Assembly: GCA_021158055.1 (NCBI GenBank)
Contig: JAGGVJ010000005.1
Coordinates: 1 to 35,600 of the forward strand
Direction: 5' to 3'
DNA from: Candidatus Iainarchaeum sp.
GTDB taxonomy: Archaea > Iainarchaeota > Iainarchaeia > JAGGVJ01
DNA length: 35,600 bases
Shown here: piece after piece, positions 208 to 32,897 of the stretch
Layout: every line of letters begins with the position of its first letter
Position numbering within the stretch: the stretch's first letter is position 1
The notes under the pieces: model-generated
Seen by the model: only the letters and a program-made list of their open reading frames with translations
Told to the model about the DNA's origin: nothing
The model's database searches: none
Translations under genes and position numbers: made by a program

Positions 208-1302
208 TTGAACGAATTGAAAGAATTGAAAGAAACGGTTCATGTGGACGGGTCTTTCCTTGAGGGCGGGGGGCAGATTCTCCGCTCGTCAGTTGCGCTT
301 TCGTGCATCACCAAGCAGCCTGTGGAAATCAACAACATAAGAGCCGAAAGAAGAAACCCTGGTCTTGCAGCCCAACACCTGACAGGCATCGGCCTGGCTG
401 CAAAAATGTCCAAGGCAAGCGTTGAAGGGTTGAGGCCGGGTTCAAAGGAGTTAATTTTTTCCCCTGAAAAAATTGCCGGGGGAATGTATTCCGCAAACGT
501 CGGAACCGCGGGGTCAATCACTTTGGTTCTCCAGTCAGCTGTTCCGGTTGCGGCGTTTTCAGATTCAAAAACAAATGTAATGATCTCGGGGGGAACAGAT
601 GTCTTGTGGAGCCCGCCCGTGGATTACACTTCAAACGTGGTTTTTCCGGTTCTTTCAAAAATGGGTTTTTCATGCAGCCTCAAAACCAAGAAAAGAGGAT
701 ATTATCCGCGCGGAGGAGGGCTTGTCAAGTTCTGGTGCCTGCCTGCAAAAGAACTGAAACCGGTTGATTTTTCATTGGGATTAAAAGAAAAGGATTTCAA
801 AGTTGTGAGGGGGATCAGCCACTGCGCAGGGCTTCCTGAAGACATTGCGGAACGCCAGGCAAAGTCAGCGGGAAAAGCCCTTGAAGAAGTTTTCGGTGAT
901 GTGATAATTGACATTGAAGCCGCTCCAAAAAACAGGTCGCAGACCATCGGCTCAGGCATAACTCTTTGGCTTGAGTCAAAAAATGCAGTGATCGGTTCAA
1001 GTTCTCTTGGCGCTCAAGGAAAACCCGCTGAAAAAGTCGGGGCAGAAGCAGCTGAAATTCTCAAAAAAACAATTGAAAGCAAATGCCCGGTCGACGAACA
1101 CGCGTCAGACCAGCTTTTGATTTTCATGGCGCTTGCACGCGGAAGATCCTGCCTGCTCACAGATGTCCTTTCAAGCCATTCAAAGACAAACATGTACATC
1201 ATAGAAAAGTTTCTTCCTGTAAAGTTCAAAACAGAAGAAACCGATTGCGGGATTTTGATAAGTGTTGAAGGAGCAGGCGTCAAAAACCCTGATTTTAAGT
1301 AG
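208..1302 (+). CDS. rtcA: RNA 3'-terminal phosphate cyclase
   Basis: DGSxxEGGGQILR, RxNPGLxxQH, GTAGSITL, GGTDV, RGYYPxGGG, DEHxxDQ and SHxxTN (catalytic His) motifs. Confidence 0.95.
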   Translation: MNELKELKETVHVDGSFLEGGGQILRSSVALSCITKQPVEINNIRAERRNPGLAAQHLTGIGLAAKMSKASVEGLRPGSKELIFSPEKIAGGMYSANVGTAGSITLVLQSAVPVAAFSDSKTNVMISGGTDVLWSPPVDYTSNVVFPVLSKMGFSCSLKTKKRGYYPRGGGLVKFWCLPAKELKPVDFSLGLKEKDFKVVRGISHCAGLPEDIAERQAKSAGKALEEVFGDVIIDIEAAPKNRSQTIGSGITLWLESKNAVIGSSSLGAQGKPAEKVGAEAAEILKKTIESKCPVDEHASDQLLIFMALARGRSCLLTDVLSSHSKTNMYIIEKFLPVKFKTEETDCGILISVEGAGVKNPDFK

Positions 1303-1324
1303 TGGTCGAAAGGAATCAGGCTAT

Positions 1325-1389
1325 TGTTTGGTTTTGTAAAACTATACAATTACCCCCATGTTTGGTTTTGTAAAACCAACCTTTATAAA
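1325..1389 (+). promoter_or_regulatory. Two identical 18-bp boxes TGTTTGGTTTTGTAAAAC followed by a TATA-like TTTATAAA
   Basis: Copies at 1325-1342 and 1359-1376; the second extends to the palindrome TTGGTTTT-GT-AAAACCAA (1362-1379); TTTATAAA at 1382-1389. Confidence 0.55.
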
Positions 1390-1415
1390 TAAGTTTGGCG
1401 TAATTTAACTTTTTC

Positions 1416-1471
1416 GTAAGTCCCCTTCCGAAAGGGGGTAGTTCACTGAGCATTCCCTTGTGGTTGTTTTT
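1416..1471 (+). ncRNA. Candidate small RNA resembling an IS200/IS605 right end (copy 1)
   Basis: GTAAGTCCCCTTCC-GAAA-GGGGGTAGTTCAC (1416-1446) starts ~27 nt after the TATA box, followed by 20 nt and TTTTT; no + strand ORF downstream; second copy at 15214-15246 (-). Confidence 0.5.
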
Positions 1472-1506
1472 ATTAATCTGTTAATGATTTCAAATAAGCA
1501 ATGGAT

Positions 1507-2388
1507 TCAGACAAGCGCAAAGACAAAATACATAAAGTCGCCGATTGCAAGGTTCAAAACCAGTGACAAAAAGATGAACGGCACAAAAGCAGGGCTTCCG
1601 CGGTAAACAGGAAGTGTCTTGATGTCGTGTTTTTTGCATTTTTCAATTATTTTTTCAAGGTCTTTTTGCTCAAGCACTTTTTTCGACCCTGTTTCAAGAA
1701 TGGCCGCGGTTTTTTCGTCGAGAAGCTCGGTTGCAAGGACTTCCTCGTCTTCTATTTCTTCCGGCTTCAGGTTTATTATTATGAATCTTTTGGTAATTTC
1801 ATTCTTGAACGCAAAAGAAAGCGAACCCGCAGCCAAAGGAAGTCCCACAAGAAGCCCCGCAGTGAAAGAGGCGCTGGTTGAAGAAACAAAAAACCAGGTC
1901 AGCCACGCAGTGAATGCAAGCATTGCCAATGCCGTAAGAAGTGTTTTTGCATTTGGTTTGAAATGTCTTGTTTTGTCAAGGAAGATCCTTGCAAGGTAAT
2001 AAGGAGACATGAAGCTCATTGCAAGGTATGCCGATACAAAGATCACTGGCAGTATGAACGGAAGGGAAATTACCATTGTTTCCGGTGCCTGCGCGAAAGG
2101 GTGGGTCGGAAGAAGCAAGACAAGGCCTGTGAAAAGAAGTATGTCTCCGCCGCCCATTTGTCCGGTATAGTAAATGACGTACCCGATTCCGAAAACCAGT
2201 GCAGCCATTGAAAAAGTTGAGATTATATAGGAAAAGTCAAGGGAAGCAAGAGTCAGGATTATCCCGAGCCCGATCATTGAATAAACTGTTTTCTGCGGGA
2301 CAAGTTTTGTTTTGGCATCCACTATTGCAGAGTAAAGCGTTCCGATGACTGCGATGGCTGTTTTTGCGACTGCCAGTTCAAAAATCAT
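1507..2388 (-). CDS. A24-family prepilin/preflagellin peptidase (FlaK/PibD-like)
   Basis: Polytopic membrane protein with N-terminal Asp (AIVD), GGGD motif and C-terminal PAFVPFI; ATGA overlap with pus10. Confidence 0.85.
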   Translation of the reverse strand: MIFELAVAKTAIAVIGTLYSAIVDAKTKLVPQKTVYSMIGLGIILTLASLDFSYIISTFSMAALVFGIGYVIYYTGQMGGGDILLFTGLVLLLPTHPFAQAPETMVISLPFILPVIFVSAYLAMSFMSPYYLARIFLDKTRHFKPNAKTLLTALAMLAFTAWLTWFFVSSTSASFTAGLLVGLPLAAGSLSFAFKNEITKRFIIINLKPEEIEDEEVLATELLDEKTAAILETGSKKVLEQKDLEKIIEKCKKHDIKTLPVYRGSPAFVPFIFLSLVLNLAIGDFMYFVFALV

Positions 2389-13011: not shown

Positions 13012-13668
13012 TTATTTTTGAAGTATGTTTACAGTTACGTTTTCATCGGTTTTCATGGTTTTGACTGTTATCTTTGAAGGCGGGTTTCTTGCGCCTCTTT
13101 TCCAGATTTCGGTGTTTAACTCGGTTGAGATAAGAACTTTGTCAACAGGCATTTTCGTGTGCCTTGCCGCGAGCTCCCTGATTATCTTAATTGCTTTTCC
13201 TGCTCTTCTGTTCAACGGAACTTCTTTTGCTTTCCTTAGCGGGAAAGTGTGGACTCGTTCTTCAGCGATTTGTTCTTTTTTCGCAGGCGCCTTTTTCACC
13301 GGCTTTGCTTCCTTTGAGGCAACTCCTTTTTCTGTTGTTTTGGTTTCGGTTTTTGCTTTGGTTTCGGTTTTTGTGCCTGTTGTTTTGGTTTCTTCTGTGG
13401 GTTTTGGTTTTTCGGTTTCTGTTGTTTTGTTTTTTTCAACAGGTTTTTCGTTCACTTCAACATCTCCAGCAGGTTTATCTGCTTCAGCTTTTTGGGTTTC
13501 TTTTGTCTCTTTTTTTGGTTCTGTTGTTTTGGTTTCGGTTTTTGCTTTGGTTTCGGTTTTTGTGCCTGTTGTTTTGGTTTCTTCTTTTGTTTTGGTTTCT
13601 TCTGTGGGTTTTGGTTTTTCGGTTTCTGTTGTTTTGTTTTTTTCAGTTTGTGTTTTTTCTTCAGCCAT
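13012..13668 (-). CDS. rpl31e: 50S ribosomal protein L31e with a long K/T/E-rich N-terminal extension
   Basis: C-terminal ERVHTFPLR...RRAGKAIK...LNxEIWKRG..NPP; ATG 13668 follows an AGGTGA SD. Confidence 0.9.
   Translation of the reverse strand: MAEEKTQTEKNKTTETEKPKPTEETKTKEETKTTGTKTETKAKTETKTTEPKKETKETQKAEADKPAGDVEVNEKPVEKNKTTETEKPKPTEETKTTGTKTETKAKTETKTTEKGVASKEAKPVKKAPAKKEQIAEERVHTFPLRKAKEVPLNRRAGKAIKIIRELAARHTKMPVDKVLISTELNTEIWKRGARNPPSKITVKTMKTDENVTVNILQK
13330..13645. repeat. ~108-bp internal duplication in the rpl31e extension
   Basis: 13330-13438 matches 13519-13645 apart from an 18-bp insert (KEETKT). Confidence 0.85.
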
Positions 13669-14775: not shown

Positions 14776-15033
14776 TTATTTTTTAAAAATAACAAAAGTG
14801 TTTCCTTTTGTTTCAATTAGTTCAGAATTTGTCCCTTTAAGTACTTCGTCTATTATTTCCTCTTTTTTATCTTTTATACTTTTCTGAATTTTTATTTTTA
14901 TAAGCTTGTTTTTTTCAAATTGTGTTTTCACCTCTGAAACAAAATTGTCGGTAACACCTGATTTTCCCACAAAAAGCGCGGGCTCAAGATGCATTGCCTT
15001 GGATTTCATGGGTTTTTTGCTTTTTGCTTCCAT
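14776..15033 (-). CDS. YhbY/CRS1-family RNA-binding protein
   Basis: HLEP...VGKSGVT...EV...LIKIK...GNTFVIFK; start at ATG 15033. Confidence 0.85.
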   Translation of the reverse strand: MEAKSKKPMKSKAMHLEPALFVGKSGVTDNFVSEVKTQFEKNKLIKIKIQKSIKDKKEEIIDEVLKGTNSELIETKGNTFVIFKK

Positions 15034-15103
15034 AAAGACGCCGTTGTTTGTTTTTTGCCTGCAGTGCAACAATTTGTTTTGCGTTTACCAGGTTTGTTGG
15101 CAG

Positions 15104-15174
15104 TTATTGGCAATATCAATGTTTTATTGGCAATATCAATGTTTTATTGGCAAAATCAATGTTTTATTGACAAA
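15104..15174. repeat. 20-bp tandem repeat TTATTGGCAATATCAATGTT x~3.5
   Basis: Head-to-tail units with 1-2 substitutions and no spacers. Confidence 0.9.
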
Positions 15175-15213: not shown

Positions 15214-15246
15214 GTGAATTGCCCCTTGCTTTCGCAGGGGACTTAC
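15214..15246 (-). ncRNA. Motif resembling an IS200/IS605 right end (copy 2)
   Basis: - strand reads GTAAGTCCCCTGC-GAAA-GCAAGGGGCAATTCAC; AT-rich TATA-like tract at ~15263-15277. Confidence 0.5.
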
Positions 15247-15364
15247 AATAGCTTACAATGGGTTAAATATAATATAACTAAACAGATTTAAAAGCCTTTA
15301 TTTTAAAAGGAAAAGCAGTTAGTTAGTGGACTACAGGTTTTCAGGATATTTAAATCGCTGCAGA

Positions 15365-20569: not shown

Positions 20570-21282
20570 TTTTTTTGATCTTGTCCTTTTTTGTCTGCTT
20601 TCTGCTTTTCCCAGCTTATTTTTTCTGTTTTGTTCAAAAACAAGTACCAGCAAAAAAGCACAAAAAACGCTGTCAACACCCAGGTTTGCTCGTGAAGAAA
20701 CAGCACCGTGTCTTTTTCAAACATGCCGCTGCTTAAGATTACGACGCTTATTCTCAACGCGTTGAAAAAAAAGATAACAGGCAAAAAAGCAATTGACAAA
20801 ATTTTTTCTTTTGAAGTTGAAGGGTAAGTGAGGATAAGCGCTGCAAAAATAGACATTGACACGACTCCGGTGCAGAGCTGAATGATTGAAAAGTCAAAAC
20901 CGCCAAACAGTATTGATGTTCCGGCAAGCGCTGCTTTTGGCTCGACAATGCTTACAAAAAAATGAACAGTGGCTGCAACCGCTTTTTTCAGCGGTTCAAG
21001 TTCAATAGACGTTGTGAGAAAGTAAAGCACCAAAAACACTGAAAAAAACCTTGCTATTACCACGGAGTTTTTTATTGAAGTGTTTTTTAACAGGGGCTGT
21101 TTTGCGTTGTTTTTTACAGAATCTTTTGTGTTGCCGGCTGCCGGGTGTTCAGCTTTGCCTGCTGTGGGGTGTTTGGCTTTGCCTGCTGTGGGGTGTTTGG
21201 CTTTGCCTGCTGTGGGGTGTTCAGCTTTGCCTGCTGCGGATTGTTTCCCGGTATTTTCCTGTTGTCTGCCGTTCATTGCCAT
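20566..21282 (-). CDS. Exosortase/archaeosortase family protein
   Basis: IIQLCTG (Cys), FNALRI (Arg) and FLHE (His) within a TM bundle; ATG 21282 overlaps the carS TAA. Confidence 0.8.
   Translation of the reverse strand: MAMNGRQQENTGKQSAAGKAEHPTAGKAKHPTAGKAKHPTAGKAEHPAAGNTKDSVKNNAKQPLLKNTSIKNSVVIARFFSVFLVLYFLTTSIELEPLKKAVAATVHFFVSIVEPKAALAGTSILFGGFDFSIIQLCTGVVSMSIFAALILTYPSTSKEKILSIAFLPVIFFFNALRISVVILSSGMFEKDTVLFLHEQTWVLTAFFVLFCWYLFLNKTEKISWEKQKADKKGQDQKN
21143..21236. repeat. 24-bp coding tandem repeat (AGKA[E/K]HPT) x4
   Basis: GGGTGTT(CA/TG)GCTTTGCCTGCTGTG units in the sortase N-terminus. Confidence 0.9.
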
Positions 21283-23002: not shown

Positions 23003-24883
23003 GTGTTGTTTTTGAATGTGTTGACTAAATCATTTGTTTTTTTGATTGTTGTTCTCTTTTTGTCCCCTGTTTTTTCAGCGGGCGCATGGTGGGATTCTGG
23101 CTGGGATTACAGGAAACAGGTTACTGTGACTGACACCAGTGGTTCTGATCTGGCTGATTTTCAGGTTTTGGTTGAGTTTAATTCTGCTTCTTTGGTTTCC
23201 GCCGGCACTATGAAGAGTGATTGTGGGGACTTGAGGTTTGCTGACAGTTCCGGCACACAAGAGTTGAGTTACTGGGTTGAGTCGGGTTGCGGCACCACAA
23301 ACACGAAGGTTTGGGTGAAGGTTCCAAGTGTTCCTGCAAACTCTTCAGTTGATATTCACATGTATTACGGCAACGCGGAAGTGGAGAGTGCAAGCGACGG
23401 CGAGGCGACTTTTGAGTTTTTTGATGATTTTGAGGGAACGAGTTTGGATGCCAGTAAATGGGTCAATAGTAAGGGTGTTTCATTGGATACGGTAAATCAT
23501 TATGCAAAAGTTGACGGTATTAGCACTTCAAATAATCAGATTGCTGTTGCTTTAATGTCAAGGAACAAACATGCTTATCCGTTTGTAATGGAGTCAAGGA
23601 CCAAAATAAAAACCGGCGGTTCATATAGTTCATACAATTACCATCATATCGGGACCCGTTCTTGCCAGACCCCAACCTATAGAGGGGATTGCATAAGGGA
23701 TGCATATTACCCTCGCGATACCAGCTGCAGCTGGAATACGAACTTCAGAGTCTATGGAGGCACATCAGTTGCTGGTGTTTTGCCGAAACCAACAGAAGGG
23801 GTTTGGTTTAGAAGCACTGTTCAATTGGCATCCGGTGATAGCAAGGTTATTTTCGGCGGCTCTGTCGCACCCACTGCTGACCCGATAATTGATGTGGATA
23901 ATTATATCTCATTTACAACTCGCTTTTGGGCAGGTGCGCACAATGAACAAATTGGCATTGATTGGACATTCTTGAGAAAGTATGCGTCCACCGAACCGAG
24001 TGTAAGTGTCAGTGTAGAAGGGATGATTAATGCCCCTATTGTTACGGATATCTCATTTGATTTGCCTTCGTTTGAAGTTGGCCAAAGCGTAACTGCAACA
24101 GCCACTGCAACTGATCCAGACGGAAACCCCGTCACTAGCTATGATTTCCGTGTCTTGGATGGTTTGGGAAACGAGGCTTTGAATCCCGCGGCTCAGGGTT
24201 CAGGTGTTTATTCGTTTGTCGCTGAAGGCGAGCCGGGTTTGTGGCAGGTAAGAGCAAAAGCAAGTGATGGTGAGTACTGGGGCGGTGAGTTTTCAAGAGA
24301 AGTGTTTGTGAATGATTCGAGTCTTGCAACTGCAGGTTTGGGTCTGTCTGACGGAGCGCATGACAACACCGAGTTGTCGGAAGGAAAAGTGATTCTTTCA
24401 GGCACGCAGTCAAGCGGGACTTTCACCACAAATGCAATTGAGCCGGTGAATTTCAGCAAGTGGGGTGTCGTGACTTTTTCAAAAACGACGCCTGGAGATT
24501 CAAGGCTTACTGTTGACATATTGGACGCGTCTGATGACAGTGTTTTGGTTTCAAATGTACAAAACGGGCAGAACATTTCAGGCCTTGAAGTTACTGCAAT
24601 TAAGCTGAGGGCAAATTTCACTTCAGGAAGCACTCCGTCTCTGGATTTGTGGGACGTGAGTTATTATACCCAATTCAAAATAACTGTAACTAATTGCTCG
24701 GCTATTTATTCCGGAGACGTCACTGCGGAAGCGGTGAGGGTGAGTGATTCAGAAGAGTTTGGCCTGTTCACCGGCACTGGCGGTCAGGTGTTTGTTGAAG
24801 TGCCGCCCGGGGTGTATAATTTGAAGGCATGTATTCCTGCAAACGAAAAGTGCAACTGGAAGTATAACGTAGAGCTTGCGTGA
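23003..24883 (+). CDS. Secreted DUF2341-domain surface protein (lectin-like middle, Ig-like C-terminal part)
   Basis: Signal peptide; WWDSGWDYRK, DLRF, LSYWVE, VWVKVP, YYGN, FEFFDDF typical of DUF2341; no C-terminal TM. Confidence 0.8.
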   Translation: MLFLNVLTKSFVFLIVVLFLSPVFSAGAWWDSGWDYRKQVTVTDTSGSDLADFQVLVEFNSASLVSAGTMKSDCGDLRFADSSGTQELSYWVESGCGTTNTKVWVKVPSVPANSSVDIHMYYGNAEVESASDGEATFEFFDDFEGTSLDASKWVNSKGVSLDTVNHYAKVDGISTSNNQIAVALMSRNKHAYPFVMESRTKIKTGGSYSSYNYHHIGTRSCQTPTYRGDCIRDAYYPRDTSCSWNTNFRVYGGTSVAGVLPKPTEGVWFRSTVQLASGDSKVIFGGSVAPTADPIIDVDNYISFTTRFWAGAHNEQIGIDWTFLRKYASTEPSVSVSVEGMINAPIVTDISFDLPSFEVGQSVTATATATDPDGNPVTSYDFRVLDGLGNEALNPAAQGSGVYSFVAEGEPGLWQVRAKASDGEYWGGEFSREVFVNDSSLATAGLGLSDGAHDNTELSEGKVILSGTQSSGTFTTNAIEPVNFSKWGVVTFSKTTPGDSRLTVDILDASDDSVLVSNVQNGQNISGLEVTAIKLRANFTSGSTPSLDLWDVSYYTQFKITVTNCSAIYSGDVTAEAVRVSDSEEFGLFTGTGGQVFVEVPPGVYNLKACIPANEKCNWKYNVELA

Positions 24884-32134: not shown

Positions 32135-32779
32135 TCAGGTGTAACGCGCTCTTTTTTCTATTTCAGCTATTTTTTCAATAACTTTTTTATCACAATATCC
32201 TTTTGTCACAGCATTCCAGTTTTTCGGAAAGCCGCGCGAGTGAGTGGACGAAAGGGTTTTTTTAAGCACAAGCAAGTCAACTGCCTTGTCTTCAACTTCT
32301 TTTGAGACAAAGCCGAGCCCGAAGTCAACAAAAGCGATTTTTTTGTTTTCATCTGCTTCTGCCGGTATTATGTTTGAAGTTGACAGGTCGCCGTGAATCA
32401 CGTCTTTTGAATGAAGCTGTTTTATGTTTTTCCCGACTGTTTCCCAGTCCTTTTCCCCGAACTTTTCCAGCGACAGGTCTTTTAACAGAGTGCCTTCCAT
32501 GAACTCCATGCAGATTTCAAAGTTTTTCAAATCCACTGAAAAAACAAGAGGGGTTCTGACACCGCTTTGTTTTGCTTTGCTTAAAAGCCGTGCCTCTGAA
32601 CGCGTGCGTTCCCTTCGAAGCCGCTCGTCAAGTTCTTTCGGGCGGTATGTTTTTTGAATCCGCCGTTTAAGGATTGCTTTTCGGCCGAGAAATTTAGCTT
32701 CAAACACTTCTGCTTCCGCGCATTTTGCAAGCGTTTTTTTTAAAGTGATTTCCAGGTTTTGTTTTTTTTCTTTGATCAT
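32135..32779 (-). CDS. bud32: KEOPS kinase/ATPase Bud32 (stand-alone)
   Basis: AEA, KxRxxKxYR..LD..LR..RT..EA, HGDLxTSN, DFGL, EDKAVDL, RARY end. Confidence 0.92.
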   Translation of the reverse strand: MIKEKKQNLEITLKKTLAKCAEAEVFEAKFLGRKAILKRRIQKTYRPKELDERLRRERTRSEARLLSKAKQSGVRTPLVFSVDLKNFEICMEFMEGTLLKDLSLEKFGEKDWETVGKNIKQLHSKDVIHGDLSTSNIIPAEADENKKIAFVDFGLGFVSKEVEDKAVDLLVLKKTLSSTHSRGFPKNWNAVTKGYCDKKVIEKIAEIEKRARYT

Positions 32780-32845
32780 TTTAATCCTCATTGGTCATTT
32801 TAATCCTCATTGGTTATTTTAATCCTCATTGGTTATTTTAATCCT
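32778..32845. repeat. 19-bp tandem repeat ATTTTAATCCTCATTGGT(C/T) x3.5 over the bud32 start
   Basis: Units begin at 32778, 32797, 32816 and 32835. Confidence 0.9.
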
Positions 32846-32897
32846 GCTTGTGTTTTTTTAGCATTGCCTGAACCTGTATTTTGCAGGTTTTTTAGCA

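Follow-up and report, generated by a model that had tools for sequence, protein, structure and literature searches.

The window analyzed here is a stretch of 35,600 nucleotides (nt) from Candidatus Iainarchaeum sp. (assembly GCA_021158055.1, contig JAGGVJ010000005.1, positions 1 to 35,600 of the forward strand), and the element in question is a short cassette at 1405-1446. This cassette is very likely a terminal-only palindrome-associated transposable element (PATE), namely a ~37-nt remnant, located 3' of TTAAC, of an IS1341-type, tnpB-only element of the IS200/IS605 family. Its anatomy is a chimera of left-end and right-end sequence, an intact element of the parental type is present in the same genome, and the same architecture recurs in two subfamilies. 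PATEs are gene-less elements that carry the near-terminal palindromes of IS605-type transposons, according to the work that described them (Dyall-Smith et al. 2011, PMC3119063). A first-pass annotation of the window had taken the cassette for a minimal scaffold-plus-guide RNA expressed in trans, with a PATE or miniature inverted-repeat transposable element (MITE) remnant as its fallback, and it is this fallback that the evidence favors.

Both Termini Are Fused Around a Single Palindrome

The cassette lies within a 204-nt spacer between the convergent genes for RNA 3'-phosphate cyclase (208-1302, plus strand) and an A24-family peptidase (1507-2388, minus strand), and, as had been noted before, no plus-strand gene follows it. 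The TATA-like box, the hairpin motif, the 20-nt tail and the TTTTT run described at first pass are all found where they had been placed, and the motif, GTAAGTCCCCTTCCGAAAGGGGGTAGTTCAC, does span 1416-1446, but the start of the unit had been set too late, as TTAAC and the 6 bases at 1410-1415 also belong to it (Table 1). Within the window this 31-mer is single at ≤3 mismatches, and 0 of 100 shuffles gave a match.

The unit proper (1410-1446, 37 nt) comprises both termini and one palindrome, has no core and is too short to encode a protein. It is without terminal inverted repeats, its flanks are not duplicated, and a short targeting sequence stands on its 5' side. The genome searched, of which the window is contig C31, comprises 1.15 Mb in 45 contigs and is 94.9% complete. 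When the full tnpB element on contig C28 was compared with this genome by blastn, window positions 1403-1436 aligned to its positions 1-34, i.e., its left end, with 94% identity. The foot ahead of the cassette hairpin, GTAAGT, likewise has the left-end form, and the hairpin is predicted to fold as DNA into a 6-bp stem with a GAAA loop. The terminal octamer closes four of the five right-end modules listed in the genome (C28, C33b, C20 and C13; C33a has TGGTTCAC) as well as distant TnpB elements, and similarity between copies ceases after 1446. Since 12 left-end bases, one hairpin and eight right-end bases thus follow one another, both element termini are fused around a single palindrome.

Table 1. 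Features that make up or surround the two stubs of the window.
Feature	Position	Strand	Basis or remark
TTAAC, conserved pentanucleotide directly 5' of the element	1405-1409	+	Precedes every subfamily-A left boundary
Left-end-derived 12 nt, TTTTTCGTAAGT (canonical CTTTTCGTAAGT)	1410-1421	+	Matches first bases of the C28 tnpB element
Single subterminal hairpin, CCCCTTCC-GAAA-GGGGG	1422-1438	+	Resembles C28 left-end hairpin CCCCTTCTGAAAGGGAGGGG
Right-end-derived terminal octamer TAGTTCAC (transposon end motif)	1439-1446	+	Last 8 bases of right ends
20-nt "tail" TGAGCATTCCCTTGTGGTTG, probable insertion-site flanking DNA	1447-1466	+	Common to no other copy
T5 run TTTTT, possible archaeal terminator	1467-1471	+	Sequence
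Strong TATA-like box TTTATAAATAA (TTTATAAA at 1382-1389; TTTATAAATA to 1391)	1382-1392	+	Position weight matrix (PWM) score 9.1
Two copies of a 16-nt direct repeat, TTTGGTTTTGTAAAAC, each partly palindromic, just upstream of TATA	1326-1341, 1361-1376	+	Sequence
218-nt block with the whole convergent-gene spacer, absent from a related organism	1288-1505	.	Run X3 contig
Second stub	15214-15266	-	Covariance model score 52.7 bits
Second stub: TTAAC	15266-15262	-	
Second stub: left-end part with 9-nt internal duplication	15261-15241	-	
Second stub: hairpin CCCCTGCGAAAGCAAGGGG	15240-15222	-	
Second stub: terminal CAATTCAC	15221-15214	-	

Two subfamilies of related copies occur in the genome, subfamily A, to which the cassette belongs, and its sister subfamily B. 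TTAAC was found 5' of all nine subfamily-A left boundaries (five stubs, the left ends on C28 and C33, and two stubs from a metagenome), and further upstream the sequences of these copies differ. By analogy with IS200/IS605 biology, TTAAC would be both the target site of the transposon and the transposon-adjacent motif (TAM) of its TnpB.

An Element of the Parental Type Resides in the Same Genome

On contig C28, an open reading frame (ORF) of 414 aa is flanked by both types of end. On its left side, TTAAC directly precedes an element (28243 to 26929, minus strand) that begins CTTTTCGTAAGT-CCCCTTCTGAAAGGGAGGGG-ATAGGAATATATG and continues in the order ATAGG, TATA and tnpB, while its right side closes with GAATCAGGAAG-CCCCATCCATAAGGGCGGGG-TAGTTCAC, i.e., GGAAG, a hairpin and the octamer. 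The ORF has the Pfam domains OrfB_IS605, Cas12f1-like TNB and HTH_OrfB_IS605, and its residues 9-375 match the solved TnpB structures 8h1j and 8bf8/8exa, which we take to be ISDra2 TnpB, at E ~1e-45. In the alignment GLDLG, VEDLN and DRDTNA motifs are seen, which would hold the acidic RuvC residues. The presence of both end types around a TnpB ORF therefore marks an intact tnpB-only IS200/IS605 (IS1341-type) element, and the resident TnpB appears, from its sequence, to be ISDra2-like and intact.

A genome-wide pattern search returned two classes of sites, namely class I, in which TGAATCAGGAAG-CCCCATCCGTAAGGGTGGGG-TAGTTCAC stands at the 3' end of a conserved stretch, and class II, which reads TTAAC-CTTTTCGTAAGT-hairpin-TAGTTCAC. 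The true right ends of the genome read GGAAG-CCCC..GGGG-TAGTTCAC, in agreement with the earlier description of the cassette motif as right-end-like. Their GGAAG(C) foot, from which the cassette differs, is also found in distant archaeal TnpB elements, whose right ends read GAAGCAGGAAG-hairpin-yAGTTCAC (Methanohalophilus, Methanococcoides, and metagenome-assembled genomes of Methanomethylicota and Aenigmatarchaeota). The rule that the foot pairs with TCAC comes from work on IS608, and it had been remarked at first pass that the cassette foot departs from it. This is indeed so, as true right ends have the predicted GAAG foot and the cassette has GTAAGT, and the foot is "wrong" for a right end because it belongs to a left end. 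At C13:16591-16666 (minus strand), hairpin modules occur in tandem, a right-end-like unit ending in TAGTTCAC being directly followed by a second unit, TCAAGAAGTCCTTTGTGAAAGCAAGGGGTAGTTTAC.

The TnpB-family protein that the first-pass annotation supposed to be encoded elsewhere thus exists on C28, and a second TnpB is encoded on C12, behind a subfamily-B-like left end. The full copy of subfamily B (C15:11714-13179, locus L064) carries IscB instead, a protein of 468 aa with RRXRR and HNH domains that is the sole RRXRR match of the genome and is encoded antisense to the element as read from left end to right end. The ends of this element are built like those of the TnpB elements, with TTTAT preceding CCTCATCGTAAGA-hairpin on the left and hairpin-TAATTGAC on the right. 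The model of the Y1 transposase (PF01797) gave 0 matches in the genome.

Stubs Recur in Two Subfamilies Beside Full and Partly Deleted Elements

A covariance model built from seven stubs finds 19 sites in the genome at E ≤ 1, comprising five subfamily-A stubs, three subfamily-B stubs, four left ends and seven right-end or right-end-like modules, i.e., the model made from stubs also matches ends of either side. The subfamily-A stubs are the two of the window (1405-1446 and 15214-15266) and those on C14, C45 and C22, while subfamily B is represented on C25, C40 and C45 (28566-28610), where TTAT precedes CCTCATAGTAAGA at the left end and the right end is GGGGTAATTGAC. The units of these eight stubs measure 37-48 nt. 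A second copy had been reported within the window, and at 15214-15246 (minus strand) GTAAGTCCCCTGCGAAAGCAAGGGGCAATTCAC is present, with the same GTAAGT foot and TTCAC end, another hairpin sequence and an unrelated tail; the further copies found by the genome-wide pattern scan have differing tails as well. Two other matches of the pattern were set aside, namely C23:20105-20136 (GTAAGCCCGTGCGAAGACGGGTTCAAGTTCAC), which was not recovered by the covariance model at E ≤ 1 and is unrelated or unclear, and C28:51276-51315, which has no hairpin.

Across the seven aligned stubs, hairpin pairing is kept in 86.5% of cells, compared with 52-64% when partners are slid, and three of the eight hairpin pairs change on both sides. 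The hairpin is retained in six of the seven and has decayed in the C22 stub. The surroundings of the stubs are unremarkable intergenic DNA and vary from copy to copy. Most stubs face the promoter side of a gene or separate two divergent genes, and both orientations relative to the neighbors occur.

Partly deleted copies are also present. The copy at C33:33685-34136 still has its left end together with 183 nt from the 5' part of tnpB, as well as its final 70 nt, and C33:7139-7268 (L063) consists of the last 130 nt only, with 91% identity to the C28 element and no tnpB upstream. The stubs themselves differ in the point at which left-end sequence switches to right-end sequence; the hairpin of the cassette (C31a) resembles the left-end hairpin of C28, and that of C14 is identical to the right-end hairpin CCCCATCCGTAAGGGTGGGG. 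Hairpins that are chimeric in such different ways fit independent deletions at different microhomologies.

Outside this genome, a pattern scan of metagenomes, for which the pattern proved too loose, gave 47 loci, of which two were real stubs, six carried an unrelated conserved sequence and 39 were judged by eye to be chance. The two real stubs are identical over 50 nt and occupy two different loci (L024 and L051) of one metagenome. In a sample of 150 genomes of the class no full stub was found, and three genomes gave partial right-end-type matches only.

A Core Deletion Would Account for the Cassette

The series of events would begin with the insertion of a tnpB-only insertion sequence 3' of TTAAC. 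The core would then have been lost, probably by deletion between short repeats common to both end hairpins (AAG.CCCC and GGGG.TAG), either at the cassette site or before the last move. The scar would be the 37 nt observed, namely the first 12 left-end bases, one hairpin and the last eight right-end bases, and the 20-nt "tail" would be DNA that flanked the old insertion. Such a stub would no longer serve TnpB and would be unable to make a functional omegaRNA, yet it may be transcribed by the accident of a neighboring TATA box. It is probably immobile, as no TnpA was found in the genome. A full copy would direct its TnpB-omegaRNA to TAM plus flank, so that an allele from which the element had been cleanly removed would be cut. 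Deletion of the core would keep the TTCAC-flank junction and lose the TTAAC-flank junction, and would thereby be immune to such cutting. Immunity of core-deletion alleles could explain why stubs, rather than clean excisions, build up in a polyploid or recombining population.

A precedent exists in Haloquadratum, where repeat-mediated core deletions between near-terminal palindromes gave rise to 52-bp terminal-only versions, including HqIRS46, and the IS1341-type ISHwa23 was reduced from 1500 bp to 52 bp (PMC3119063). All six strain-specific ISHwa23 insertions reported there are of the 52-bp version, and mobilization of this form was suggested (PMC3119063). The stubs described here resemble the terminal-only PATEs of Haloquadratum walsbyi in having both IS200/IS605-type termini fused around one near-terminal palindrome over ~40-50 bp, in lacking inverted terminal repeats, in the 4-5-nt targeting sequence on their 5' side, and in occurring beside full tnpB elements and internally deleted intermediates where a working TnpA is scarce or absent. 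They differ in their host, which is no haloarchaeon but an archaeon from a hydrothermal vent with a genome of 1.15 Mb, in their unit size (37-48 nt vs. 52 bp), in their low number (eight copies), and in that the sister subfamily is tied to IscB. This likeness is one of described architecture. Within the genome itself, near-terminal palindrome and terminal oligonucleotides of the cassette match the C28 element, and every structural feature of a terminal-only PATE was found. There is also a likeness to REP/RAYT systems (repetitive extragenic palindromes and their associated tyrosine transposases), where a single short intergenic hairpin with a conserved 5' foot is tied to IS200/IS605 ends; in contrast to these, no Y1/RAYT gene was found in the genome, which contains eight copies rather than hundreds and holds a clear parent insertion sequence.

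If the cassette is what it appears to be, terminal-only PATEs, known from haloarchaea, now extend to an archaeon with a tiny genome. As the eight stubs outnumber the two to three intact TnpB/IscB elements and no TnpA is detectable, deletion between end hairpins may be how streamlined genomes shed these elements, and such deletions would preserve an end-flank junction that is not targetable by the TnpB guide. In practice, the case is a warning for annotation, in that a hairpin of right-end type with TTCAC and then unique sequence behind it mimics a TnpB guide and can be a dead transposon stub.

Observations That Weigh Against a Core-Deleted Remnant

Four groups of observations do not sit easily with this account. 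First, the second stub of the window (C31b) and the stubs on C45 and C22 share a third type of hairpin (TGCGAAAGCAA-like) that is present in no extant full element, and these stubs may have spread as stubs or may derive from an extinct element. Second, the cassette is preceded by a strong TATA-like box, 26-28 nt before its first base, with a PWM score (9.1) in a range (≥8) that just 1.2% of 491 non-ORF TTAAC sites attain, and the genes on both sides of this box are convergent, so that their spacer needs no promoter. Third, in both the cassette and the C22 stub, exactly 20 nt separate TTCAC from the T5 run behind it, a coincidence with a chance probability of ~0.03 for at least one of the other four subfamily-A stubs and of ~0.05 over all seven other stubs.

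Fourth, comparison with relatives gave no precise empty site, i.e., no related contig in which TTAAC is directly joined to the start of the tail, TGAGCATT. A cold-seep contig (run X3) with 92-94% identity over the flanking genes aligns to window positions 604-1287 with 56 differences and to 1506-1986 with 31, and the two aligned parts are separated by GCGGGT alone. As this contig joins 1287 to 1506, the whole 218-nt spacer, including the repeats, the TATA-like box, the stub and the T5 run, is an indel between relatives, and the contig, being without the entire spacer, does not bear out the element boundaries and gives no sign of an earlier full-length insertion. The orthologous spacer was not found among 40 class-level relatives, which include no genus- or family-level kin; the nearest relatives searched are thus of class level only, with genomes of 0.4-1.4 Mb.

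Little Remains of a Guide RNA

The second and third of these points are the ground on which a guide RNA can be argued; together with the absence of the 218-nt spacer from a ~92%-identical relative, they make three weak hints of something more. An RNA of ~55 nt, with the TATA-like box as promoter and the T5 run as terminator, could act like a CRISPR RNA (crRNA) and be used in trans by the resident TnpB, with the remaining scaffold provided by an RNA from another locus, and with TTAAC plus the 20-nt tail as target. Stub, TATA-like box and T5 run would then form a natural "split" guide, composed of the last omegaRNA hairpin, AGTTCAC and 20 nt of guide sequence. They would amount to a surviving link from the omegaRNAs of transposons to guides of the CRISPR type, within a genome that has no CRISPR adaptation genes, and would bear on the origin of CRISPR-type guides from transposon RNAs. 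We consider both the orphan mini guide and the split arrangement highly improbable.

In their support, the distance between the strong TATA-like box and the element start is typical of the genome, in which TTTAWAWA peaks 30 nt before ATG (15 occurrences at -30 vs. 1-3 elsewhere), a T5 run begins at +21 in the cassette and in the C22 stub, and an apparently intact ISDra2-like TnpB is available. Also kept in the unit are the hairpin and the bases AGTTCAC, which in a real omegaRNA stand next to the guide. The splitting of an omegaRNA into tracr-like and cr-like parts is given as the route from TnpB to Cas12 (Jin et al. 2025 via review PMC13565253), and trans-acting omegaRNAs borne on PATEs have been proposed (PMC10055086).

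The scaffold speaks to the contrary. In ISDra2, the omegaRNA scaffold measures 116 nt and has four stems and a pseudoknot of -5..-3 with -103..-105 (Nakagawa et al. 2023, PMC10097598). The last 130 nt of the C28 element and of the C33a fragment are 91% identical, and in each of them a GAACT at -116 could pair with the AGTTC at -7..-3; judged from the sequence, this pairing is a plausible counterpart of the ISDra2 pseudoknot. The stubs lack this conserved stretch of 130 nt together with its GAACT at -116 and retain the last 31 nt only, after left-end bases, so that just 31-37 of ~116-130 scaffold nt are present, the conserved stems are missing, and the 5' third of the proposed RNA is left-end sequence. 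Like the ISDra2 omegaRNA, also called right-end element RNA (reRNA), the stub has the last hairpin and the guide-adjoining bases, which are followed by flanking DNA as at a true right end; unlike it, the stub is 31-37 nt long, lacks the pseudoknot partner and takes its 5' part from a left end (PMC10097598). In the 130-nt fragment at C33:7139-7268, the predicted omegaRNA scaffold is complete, with GAACT at -116, and this fragment is a better candidate for a stand-alone omegaRNA than the cassette.

A search of the genome with the five subfamily-A tails yielded no second target beyond chance partial matches, and the tail of the cassette, the only one compared with the viral contig collection, gave 0 exact matches there. 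When 1416-1471 is folded as RNA, the tail is predicted to base-pair with the hairpin's 3' arm rather than to stay free.

Nor is the promoter a family trait of the stubs, as far as sequence scores indicate. In the same window relative to the element, the other four subfamily-A stubs have TATA scores of 4.8, 6.4, 5.0 and -4.9, and Fisher combinations against AT-matched TTAAC sites gave p ~0.01 with the discovery copy and ~0.11 without it, the latter not being beyond chance. In non-ORF DNA, each position of either strand begins a T5 run with a frequency of 0.0072, and the C22 stub, the other one with T5 at +21, has no TATA-like box; as it combines the worst TATA score with a decayed hairpin, the TATA, T5 and hairpin features do not travel together. 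No Rfam family reached its gathering score in the window, and for 1300-1520 at E ≤ 10 only chance-level rows (E 3.5-9.7) were returned. The minimal scaffold-plus-guide RNA of the first-pass annotation is thus not supported, given the loss of most of the scaffold, a 5' half made of left-end DNA, the want of a second target in the collections searched and a promoter that does not characterize the family.

Known systems that come close to such an RNA differ from the cassette in further respects. The PATE-like elements of Geobacillus stearothermophilus are likewise gene-less, have IS200/IS605 ends and would need proteins in trans, but they often encode omegaRNAs, for which the stub is too short (Meers et al. 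2023 preprint, PMC10055086). With TranC and type V crRNAs, i.e., split omegaRNAs, the stub shares a short right-end-derived unit followed by ~20 nt of variable sequence; unlike them (PMC13565253), it forms no array, gave no sign of a tracr-like partner and is accompanied by no Cas1 match that reaches the cut-off, and its hairpin folds on itself instead of pairing, as a repeat would, with an anti-repeat. The window holds no CRISPR array, its units being single, and the Cas1 model gave only a sub-threshold match in the genome. This match, at C21:15443-15619 (minus strand), scores 17.7 bits against a cut-off of 22.3 and lies inside an open frame of 681 aa.

Just upstream of the TATA-like box, the pair of 16-nt repeats has the look of an operator pair. 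The repeat stands beside no other stub, and GGTTTTGTAAAAC was found one further time, on C28.

Possible Mobility of the Stub Itself or Co-option by the Host

The third hairpin type raises the question whether the ~40-nt stub is itself transposable and was inserted as such by a Y1 transposase (TnpA) acting in trans, rather than formed by local deletion. This is unlikely, even if all stubs retain the TTAAC-side and TTCAC-side termini, the two identical 50-nt stubs at different loci of one metagenome are what movement would produce, three genome stubs have a hairpin of no full element, and the six strain-specific ISHwa23 insertions, all 52 bp long, led to the suggestion of a mobilizable form (PMC3119063). 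Set against this are the negative search for a Y1 transposase in a 94.9%-complete genome and the single hairpin with its left-end foot, GTAAGT, in place of the GGAAG of true right ends that is expected to pair with TCAC. The stubs have moreover diverged from each other, with differing left-to-right switch points, and the C22 hairpin has decayed.

That the host has put the hairpin to use, be it to form or stabilize a transcript 3' end, to terminate transcription, or as a fixed small RNA that has nothing to do with TnpB, has very little probability in our view. The position of the cassette between convergent genes with a T5 run after it, its GNRA-type loop and the retention of the hairpin in six of the seven aligned stubs would suit a co-opted cis element, but stubs at other sites precede genes or separate divergent ones and point either way relative to their neighbors, a relative at ~92% identity is without the whole spacer, and the predicted fold is no more stable than those of shuffles (z -1.6 as RNA, -0.97 as DNA). 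A core-deleted, terminal-only PATE remains the favored explanation of the cassette. With respect to other RNA classes, ARAGORN finds no tRNA or split tRNA in the window, and C/D-box, H/ACA and CRISPR-repeat assignments were dropped after the genome-wide copies proved to be insertion-sequence ends.

Other Repeats in the Window and Metagenomes

In six metagenome contigs (L015, L036, L040, L045, L052 and L053), a sequence of the form GTTAGAYAACCCGAAT-GTAAGTCCCGTCAYYGGRYGGGCAGTTCAC-CGGWCCTAAC is located upstream of a gene start; it is conserved but unrelated to the stubs, was picked up solely through its fit to the loose search pattern, and could be a leader or riboswitch-like element. In the window, three tandem 20-nt repeats (TTATTGGCAATATCAATGTT on the plus strand) are found at 15104-15173, between the second stub and the start of a gene with a CRS1/YhbY domain (14776-15072, minus strand), and four tandem 19-nt repeats (TCATTGGTCATTTTAATCC) at 32769-32863 are located in the spacer between two minus-strand ORFs. 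A 166-nt direct repeat with 80% identity (1-166 and 24716-24881) lies at the 3' ends of plus-strand ORFs and probably represents the C-termini of paralogous genes. Internal repetition with periods of 24-27 nt and their multiples occurs inside ORFs at 13330-13644 and 21094-21237, and these stretches probably encode low-complexity repeat proteins.

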